Shown one piece after another: positions 6,700 to 9,600 of a DNA stretch of 64,000 bases. The notes under the pieces are model-generated. The model was not told where the DNA came from. It saw nothing but the letters and a program-made list of their open reading frames with translations, and ran no database searches. Each line of letters opens with the position of its first letter. Position 1 is the stretch's first letter. Origin of the DNA: Lytechinus pictus (lineage: Eukaryota); contig NC_087251.1 of assembly GCF_037042905.1 (NCBI RefSeq), positions 41,728,001-41,792,000 of the forward strand. Reading direction: 5' to 3'. Both the position numbers and the translations under genes were made by a program.

Positions 6700-9600
6700 G
6701 TAAGATTTGTATTGTTTTATTTTTATTGTGTGAGACAGTGAGAGCGAGAGACGCGATTTAAAAGATGATCATTTTTTAGTCTGAAATGATTCGGTCGAAA
6801 ATGGAAACGATACATTCAAAGCCAAACAGTTTAAAAGTTAAATATAAGTTACACAAACTTATTTAGATAGAGTCTACGGGTAATATTTCTAGATCTAGAC
6901 CTAAAGTTTTCATCTCAAGTTAACCTAAAGAAATTAAAGACCGTTGTCCGATGTAGATCTAGATCTAGCTTAAGTGTTCGTACGGTACTTCGTCTACAGG
7001 TCTGTGTGATCACAGATGATAATCTGGCAACGCCTAACTTTTTGCGCCACGACATCGTATATATCTAGATCTACTGGTTCTGGTATCGTTACATTAGAAT
7101 GTGAATCAGGCTTCATGCCTGGTTTTAAGTCAACAAACTATTTGTATCCAATAATTATCAACTTATTGTCAAAGCCGGTTAGCGTTAGATCCTAAAATCG
7201 AAATTATAGAATGGGTGCCCAAAGTCATGGAGGTGGACATGGTAGGCCGCTACTCCGCCTCAGTTTCTAGAGTTAGATCATTCTAATTTAAAATGAGATA
7301 AATAATATGTAACAGTTAGATATCAAGACCTCAGTAGATCTAGATCTATATAAAAAGTATTATAATGATGGGTAGCAGCCAAAAAGAAATGAAAGACTTT
7401 TGAAGAAATTTACAAAATGTTTTTTTTTTCATTCCATTTTCATTTTAGGCCTAGATCTATTTAGTTATCAACAAAATTTACAATCATAACAATTCAACTT
7501 CATAAAAATTGAACCGGTAGATCTACCAAGGTTATTAAATCGACTTAATAATCAGATCTAACTGTTATACATGTAGAATATATAGATTAAGTGACGAGAA
7601 ACTGAATCAATTTAAGATTAATTCCATTTCCTTTACCTTTTTTTAGTTATTCATTTTACATGTACATTATCTAGACAAGTGATTAAATAAATTTGATCCA
7701 AACAATTAGCCGTGACATTCTGCTCCATTTGAATTCCTGTTCGCTCAACGATTTGGTTTGTTTCAATCAAGCTTAGCCTCATCACTTCATACCCCACTCC
7801 TTTGCTCGCCTAAAATATCAACCAAGCTATCCCGCCAAAAATATTACAAGGATCCCAATTCATGCACAACCCCCCCCCCCCCACCCTACCCTACTACATA
7901 CTCCATTCCCGCTAGCTCTCATTCGCCAGCGTATTTATTAAGCTAGCCATCATAATATAGATAGGCCTACGTTTCATCTATAAGACGTTGATCCCGACTC
8001 CGGGCATTCAGGCGAAAGTGAAGGGATGAAATTTATTAATACTAGAGCATATAGTTCTTAATTATTTGCTGGACAAGAAAGTGACTTCCAAAACGAAGAA
8101 AAATTAAACTTTACAGTGGCGGATCTACGGGGTGGAGGGGTTGGGGTTTAACCTCACCCCTTGGGCTGCAAAGTTATTTAAAAAAAAGTAATGATCTACA
8201 TTTTGGAACCAACCCCTTTTTGTGCTTTTCGATTTTTTCGGGACCAAAATCACCTTCATTGTATAGTGAACCTTTTTTTCTAATTTTCATTTTTTGCTTG
8301 TCAAATTTTCTCGGTCAAACCTCCTCCTTGGAAAAAAAGCTTGATGCGCCCCTGCTAGGAAACACGAGTTCTTGATCAATATGAAGCGAGGGGACTCTGC
8401 TAAAATGAAAATTTCATGACTCATCCAGTCATAATAAAAAAACCCGCTCAATCCTACTCTTGTGAAGAATATACGGTAAATGTTTGTAACAATGTGATAC
8501 CTTTGATTTGGATGGGTGGCCGAATAAGTAGGAGACGCATGTTTTTTTTTTTTTTTTTTTTTTTTTTTTTACAATTTAATGCCACAATTCTTTTAAAAAT
8601 ATATTCTCTATTATAAGTTGTACATCTGTCTGAGATTCATTTTCTTCAATCAGTCATCATGATTGGTCGATTGCACGCATGTTGTGTGTTCCCCCAAATA
8701 AGGTATGTGTTTCCACTCCCTGTGCAAACCTTTGCTTTCTCATTAGATCTTGAAGTGAGTTGATAATATACCAAGCTGTTTGATGCATGCTGTGTTCTGA
8801 AACACATAAGGCTGCGGGCCAGCCGAGAAGATATGTTATGAGAAAGATGGCCTGGCAAGTTCATTGGCGAGGATGCATGCTGATATGCCAAATATTCCTG
8901 GAATCTGACAGCTGTCTCATGGCTGAACCCCCTTGTAATGCTTTTCCAACCCGTGTAAACCGACTCGTGGAGCCAATTTATCCATGTCGGATAAAAAGAA
9001 ATGACGGAGGGTTTCCAATGACCAGTAAATACAATACGCCGATTCTCAACCCACATGCCAATGCGAATTTGAGATATATAGGGCATTAGCTTAATATTTT
9101 CTAAGTGATGGAACCCATCGGATGCTCGCTCTATCAATTGCCTATGCAGATGTGTGTGTGATCTTCCTGGGAATGTCCATTTGAAACCAATTGAAATCTC
9201 TATCAGCCCATGGTTCTCATTAACCCACCCCTCCCCCCCCCCAAATGTTTGCTTGCTTCCTTGCTGTGGTCTCCTCAACTGTAATGAGAACGCTCTGAAA
9301 TGCAAATGCATGCATCAATTTTTGTTTTCTTCATTAGAAAGTAAAGATTTTTGAAGAGAAACAAAAAAAAAGGTTGTCTTAGACTTGTTCTAATCTTTAC
9401 CCTTTTTTATCTTTTCGATTTGAACCATATCCCCACCCTTCCCTTCTTTCTCTTCCCCCTTTGAATCTTCTTGTCTCCAACTTGTATCTTGTCTGCAATT
9501 GTCCGGGCAGTCCCAGGAACTCACCATTAATGTAAGCAATCTCGCTTCTGTTATGTCTTTTGTCATGAATATATCAATGTTGGAAATCGTTCAATATCTT

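Follow-up and report, generated by a model that had tools for sequence, protein, structure and literature searches.

A candidate 21-nt cassette microexon in the first intron of a Lytechinus pictus calmodulin gene

Results

A calmodulin gene with an exon-like element in intron 1

We analyzed a 64,000-nt stretch of the Lytechinus pictus genome (NCBI RefSeq assembly GCF_037042905.1, contig NC_087251.1, positions 41,728,001 to 41,792,000 of the forward strand), hereafter called the window, in which a calmodulin gene carries a 21-nt exon-like element within its first intron. All positions below are those of the window unless another contig is named. Exon borders were located from stop-to-stop reading frames combined with inspection of the borders (Table 1). 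Six coding exons with AG/GT borders join into a spliced frame of 450 nt encoding 149 amino acids, and the product has 0 differences over 149 residues from the calmodulin part of a database protein of the invertebrate type. The gene is a canonical six-exon animal calmodulin gene. Its first intron is in phase 0, lies directly after the ATG and is spliced to the exon that starts with ADQL, as read from the sequence and from a joint used in a contig of a related organism. A search of sequencing runs with the last exon and the 3' untranslated region (UTR) as query listed contig sets labelled as the same species or as a relative, together with three raw RNA runs; the fraction of words sampled from 18290-19000 that a contig set contained reached 0.94.

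Two stretches of unusual composition accompany the gene. Intron 2 contains a tandem repeat at 11010-11965, with a period of 169 nt, about 6 copies and 69% matches. Directly downstream of the 3'UTR, the plus strand runs for more than 1 kb without a CT dinucleotide (19008-20045, then 20045-20279). The region 19008-20279 consists of GGTGGT/GATGAT-like units and gives frames with runs of His, Val and Thr on both strands.

Within intron 1 we found cag-TCCCAGGAACTCACCATTAAT-gtaagc, with the 21 bases between the flanks at 9511-9531. The element has the form of a microexon: it is no longer than 27 nt, is flanked by AG and GT, has a length that is a multiple of three and is free of stop codons. Its inclusion gives an open product of 156 amino acids (149 + 7) with the terminal stop only, and an AG inside it, at 9515-9516, makes an in-frame 15-nt version possible. 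The first-pass annotation of this DNA, which was made from the sequence, had listed the 21-nt exon, its donor, an AG-free tract at 9383-9508, a CTAAT near 9390 and a TGC about 15 nt before the acceptor. We found every one of these features as stated, with the CTAAT starting at 9390 and the TGC at 9494. Its proposal that the exon lengthens calmodulin in frame likewise held, the open frame being 156 amino acids with the exon and 149 without it.

The candidate splice sites are within the range of the constitutive sites of the same gene. The donor score (6 of 9 consensus positions) equals that of the donors of exons 1 and 3, and the proximal pyrimidine fraction of the acceptor (0.60) is the same as that of exon 5, the weakest real acceptor. 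What sets the candidate apart is the AG-free zone upstream of it, which is 126 nt long (bounded by the AGs at 9381-9382 and 9509-9510) versus 28-65 nt at the real exons. A weak proximal acceptor combined with such a zone suggests the architecture of regulated rather than constitutive exons. Within the tract, the only matches to the branch-point consensus YTNAY are at 9390-9410, and these may serve as a putative branch point. On balance, we think that 9511-9531, in this member of a set of six calmodulin genes, is probably a genuine cassette microexon, normally skipped and used in a minor or conditional way. The exon-like anatomy, its rarity, the open frame and, in a relative, the skipping junction are observed, whereas splicing-in of the exon and the conditional nature of that event are inferred.

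Table 1 Features of the calmodulin gene and of the candidate microexon in the window.
Feature	Position	Strand	Details
Exon 1	6536..6699	+	5'UTR, from 6536 or earlier, with start codon ATG 6697-6699 at the exon end; donor ATG/gtaaga
Intron 1, phase 0, 3686 nt	6700..10385	+	Sequence and GT..AG joint in relative's contig; contains candidate microexon
AG-free tract, 126 nt, 76% pyrimidine	9383..9508	+	Seven TCTT motifs
Branch-point-like YTNAY matches	9390..9410	+	CTAAT 9390, TTTAC 9396, TTTAT 9406; about 100-120 nt before acceptor
Single TGC	9494..9496	+	Between pyrimidine tract and acceptor, 13-17 nt before exon
Candidate 3' splice site AG	9509..9510	+	Context ccgggcag/; weak
Candidate cassette microexon, 21 nt	9511..9531	+	TCC CAG GAA CTC ACC ATT AAT = S-Q-E-L-T-I-N; no stop, frame kept
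Candidate 5' splice site gtaagc	9532..9537	+	AAT/gtaagc
Exon 2	10386..10416	+	GCC GAT CAA CTT ACT GAG GAG CAG ATT GCA G, between cag and gtaata
Exon 3 (EF-hands 1-2)	12736..12879	+	Sequence; relative's contig (X7) has loose end past 10416 that reads into exon 3
Exon 4	13708..13834	+	Sequence, AG/GT borders
Exon 5	16861..16976	+	Sequence, AG/GT borders
Exon 6, coding part (EFVTMMTSK + stop)	18294..18322	+	Followed by 3'UTR; AATAAA-type signals near 18707, 18781, 18991

The junction that skips the candidate is used in a relative

We placed sequencing data on positions 6000-10500, using three raw RNA runs from the same species (X19, X20 and X21) and one contig set from a relative (X7, from organism B), which shares 0.41 of the sampled words of the query made from the last exon and 3'UTR. 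In X7, one contig of 1267 nt with a depth of 147.6 aligns to 6536-6698, where 7 letters differ and 3 gaps occur. It then jumps to 10385-10416, skipping 3686 nt with GT..AG ends, and continues unbranched into exon 3, which is the canonical skipping form. The data type of X7 was guessed by the tool, and the spliced contig argues for RNA. Since the canonical junction is used in the relative, the gene is active and the borders of intron 1 are as given in Table 1. The skipping junction from 6699 to 10386 was one of those that the first-pass annotation had proposed to count, and this contig contains it.

This contig also bears on a different reading of the element, in which the exon is constitutive: the paralogue would always include the 21 bases and would be a dedicated gene for a 156-amino-acid calmodulin. 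The abundant contig of the relative joins 6698/9 directly to 10385/6, which argues against such a gene, and we give this reading hardly any credence. A cDNA-derived database entry of 156 amino acids would fit it, if confirmed.

The three raw runs, with about 8.3-8.7 million records per run, contributed 22, 17 and 16 placed reads, and the depth on exon 1 was 0, 0.12 and 0.15. With a depth so close to zero, these runs barely express this paralogue and say nothing on inclusion of the microexon. Nearly all of the placed reads fell on a short repeat at 8241-8337 in intron 1, as partial fits that are 90-99% identical, have loose ends and include a joint described as 'goes back 69'. These reads therefore come from related copies transcribed elsewhere. 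In X19, about one unspliced read pair spans 9322-9623 (n = 1); it provides no evidence of splicing, and exons 1 and 2 received no reads in this run.

A spliced exon or a chance pseudo-exon

The main rival to a genuine exon is that the element is a chance pseudo-exon, which the spliceosome ignores or uses at noise level, so that the gene makes only the 149-amino-acid calmodulin. We regard this as possible, with a clearly lower probability than a real cassette exon, and several results speak for it and weigh against the reading we prefer. In the RNA data, the skipping junction in the relative's contig is the only one seen. The 21 bases were spliced in in no read or contig placed, the raw runs having no power on this point at their exon 1 depth of 0-0.15. 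No second contig over exon 1 was present in X7, and inclusion in this relative is absent or minor, bearing in mind that rare variants are lost from contigs. A further point is the weak proximal acceptor (ccgggcag).

The individual signals are also common. The plus strand of the 64-kb window contains 15 stretches of 126 nt or more that lack an AG, or about 0.9 per 3.7-kb intron. A TGC lies within positions -30 to -3 of 735 of the 3237 AGs in the window (22.7%), so that a single TGC is not distinctive. An AG followed by an open exon of a multiple of three of at most 51 nt and by GTAAG was found 46 times in 128 kb (both strands of the window), which corresponds to about 1.3 per intron.

Against the chance explanation stands the full combination of features. 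Adding a pyrimidine fraction of at least 0.7 over the 57 nt upstream leaves one match in the 128 kb, the candidate itself. Four paralogues supplied 25.5 kb of control introns, taken from upstream of their exon 2, and there the same combination gave 0 matches even with the pyrimidine fraction loosened to 0.6. The rarity test is post hoc, the candidate having been chosen for these very features, and this weighs against the reading we prefer. The ensemble of features exceeds what chance would usually give, in a test that was post hoc.

The remaining points against a genuine exon come from the gene family and from the protein and literature searches. The studied gene belongs to a calmodulin family with several genes. 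In the 811.7-Mb assembly, six loci encode a calmodulin exon-3 peptide that is 100% identical, and all of them are on one chromosome-scale contig (C7), five at 15.876, 15.903, 22.467, 34.272 and 34.304 Mb and the gene described here at 41.740 Mb. Two pairs among these loci are spaced 27-32 kb apart. An exon of the exon-2 type was found within 10 kb upstream in 4 of the 5 other loci, and none was found in the 10 kb upstream of the locus at 15.903 Mb. Genome searches found no similar element at any of the other five calmodulin loci; the scan of the sequence upstream of exon 2 covers four of these paralogues.

The S-Q-E-L-T-I-N peptide was found in 0 of the 184 calmodulin-family proteins that were fetched, a set in which entries of 149-156 amino acids ranked too low to be included and whose result is therefore not evidence of absence. 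The protein searches used an exon-3 query with longer targets and a query of the calmodulin part, and the best 120 of 8000 scored candidates were mainly tandem or extended models. The peptide motif was not found in searchable papers. In the same literature we found nothing on a calmodulin microexon and no urchin calmodulin of 156 amino acids, and among the papers listed for calmodulin and Strongylocentrotus intermedius none dealt with the gene.

The element is single-copy and not a repeat

We searched the genome for further copies of the element. A region of 218 nt around the candidate matches only itself in the 811.7-Mb genome; being single-copy, it is not a repeat. A degenerate pattern for AG-SQELTIN-GT matches only the candidate genome-wide, and its reversed control gave 0 matches. 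When up to 2 mismatches to the 21-mer were allowed, one extra site was found in the genome, on contig C3, compared with about 0.7 such sites expected by chance according to our own arithmetic. We take this site to be a chance match and not a retrocopy, its flanks having no calmodulin context. The element is neither a repeat nor shared among paralogues, and no retrocopy is left. Intron 1 had 0 matches to Rfam families, and scans of metagenomes with the 21-mer and with its degenerate version gave 0 and 0 matches. Recursive splicing was discarded as well, as joining ATG to TCCCAG rebuilds no GT donor.

The AG-free tract could also be read from the other side. It is purine-rich on the minus strand and lies there upstream of an orphan frame of 222 codons at 8646-9314, so that the tract might serve a feature of that strand and its plus-strand appearance might be incidental. 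The frame is free of stops over 222 amino acids and ends 69 nt from the tract, and a frame of this length would be unexpected in an AT-rich intron, going by our rough estimate of stop density. The frame has no Pfam match and is single-copy in the genome, and a search of 5.8 billion proteins gave 25 candidates of similar length that share words with it, none of which is a homologue. A minus-strand function would moreover leave the AG, the open frame and the GTAAG on the plus strand unexplained. We consider this reading highly improbable and take the frame to be either a chance frame or an orphan gene, to which we attach little weight.

Possible regulation of the candidate microexon

If 9511-9531 is a genuine, conditionally used microexon, its surroundings bear on how it might be controlled. 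One special case would be a neural-type microexon controlled by an eMIC factor of the SRRM3/4 kind, alone or together with Rbfox, and yielding a tissue-specific extended calmodulin. The UGC that follows the pyrimidine tract and precedes the AG, the long AG-exclusion zone, the length of 21 nt and the GTAAG donor all fit such a switch. They are features shared by bilaterian neuronal microexons under SRRM3/4 (eMIC) control, which are described as being at most 27 nt long and keeping the frame, with a GTAAG donor, a UGC and an extended AG-exclusion zone (10.1101/2024.09.17.613571). Of the SRRM3/4-dependent human microexons, 74-79% have a UGC between branch point and AG (10.1101/2024.09.17.613571). 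Compared with these microexons, the present candidate is a putative exon whose UGC is at chance level, given that a TGC occurs in the 30 nt before 22.7% of the AGs in the window.

The first-pass annotation had pointed to the same eMIC features. The UGC and the long AG-free zone are indeed present, but each of them is individually common in the window (22.7% of AGs and 15 gaps, respectively). A Rbfox contribution is disfavored by the position of the sole GCATG within 9000-10000, which is upstream of the exon, at 9308, with none downstream. A search for the SRRM_C domain (PF15230) gave 0 matches in the L. pictus genome and was uninformative, as 0 of 14 control genomes had a match either and introns may interrupt the domain. 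We regard an SRRM3/4-like switch as unlikely, and both the tissue switch and SRRM control are speculation.

The candidate also resembles a second kind of regulated exon, reportedly described by Gooding and colleagues in 2006, in which the branch point is distant, the AG-exclusion zone is long and PTB often acts as a repressor. The likeness lies in the AG-free zone of 126 nt, in YTNAY matches that occur solely 100-120 nt upstream and in the UCUU-rich tract. TCTT (UCUU) is a PTB motif, and its seven occurrences fit PTB-type repression at least as well as they fit SRRM3/4 control. Both the branch point and a role of PTB at the candidate are putative and are read from the sequence. Cassette microexons and exons with distant branch points are known kinds of exon, and the present one is a well-formed candidate.

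Predicted consequences for the calmodulin protein

In the default mode that we propose, the start codon (ending at 6699) would be joined to exon 2 (from 10386), giving canonical calmodulin of 149 amino acids. Where the microexon is recognized, which would occur through a distant branch point near 9390-9410, the long pyrimidine tract, the weak acceptor and the GTAAG donor, a calmodulin of 156 amino acids would be made, with S-Q-E-L-T-I-N between the initiator Met and Ala-1. Under the rules of N-terminal processing, Met-Ser, like Met-Ala, should lose the Met and become acetylated. The mature extended protein would therefore carry a new, acetylated tail of seven residues ahead of helix A.

A stronger form of the proposal is that the 21-nt exon is a conserved and regulated switch, which in particular cells or stages exchanges the otherwise invariant Ac-ADQL N-terminus for a tail longer by seven residues. 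The result would be a functionally distinct isoform made by splicing and not a divergent calmodulin-like gene. We consider this form improbable on present evidence.

Calmodulin is the textbook example of an invariant protein, and animals usually diversify its expression by means of multiple genes, all with an identical product of 149 residues. If true, an N-terminal variant made by splicing would be a rare case of diversification of calmodulin itself at the protein level. The seven-residue tag at the acetylated N-terminus would also offer a handle for testing the role of this end of the protein in the choice of targets.

A database protein of the predicted length may already exist. The first-pass annotation named a sea urchin calmodulin entry (Strongylocentrotus intermedius) of 156 amino acids whose start would match the exon. 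We take this to be the Swiss-Prot entry Q8STF0, presumably from that species and 156 amino acids long; its species, length and start sequence are unconfirmed. The likeness to the predicted inclusion product (149 + 7) consists in this presumed length of 156, which, if correct, would speak for a real exon and against a chance pseudo-exon, as the gain of seven residues equals the difference from 149. Q8STF0 appears as 'Calmodulin' in a table of coral RNA sequencing data, which gives no species, length or sequence and confirms only the name of the accession. The mention of the entry in the first-pass annotation and ours may have a common origin and are not independent. If the entry is as described, the window would explain the origin of an odd entry, and the extended protein would already be in a curated database.

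Other N-terminally variant calmodulins are found among the 184 fetched proteins, in which 23 occurrences of ADQLTEEQ follow something different from the initiator Met. Models from Mytilus galloprovincialis (MKK-ADQL) and Anopheles marshallii have extra coding sequence at the same phase-0 boundary. These variant models are mostly uncurated predictions or read-throughs at contig edges, differ from the candidate in lacking its peptide, and none of them is an established 21-nt cassette. Additional coding sequence at this boundary thus has precedents in annotation, and putative N-terminal variants of this kind are common among the gene models of other animals.

Other features of the window

We observed two further open frames on the minus strand, both outside the calmodulin gene. 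The frame at 36222-36662 contains an endonuclease-reverse transcriptase domain (PF14529, E = 5.4e-9) and is a remnant of a LINE-type retroelement. The frame at 45776-46321 encodes 182 amino acids and matches the final 15 positions of the Homeodomain profile below threshold (20.4 bits, with a cut-off of 22.9 bits); a homeobox gene may have one of its exons here.

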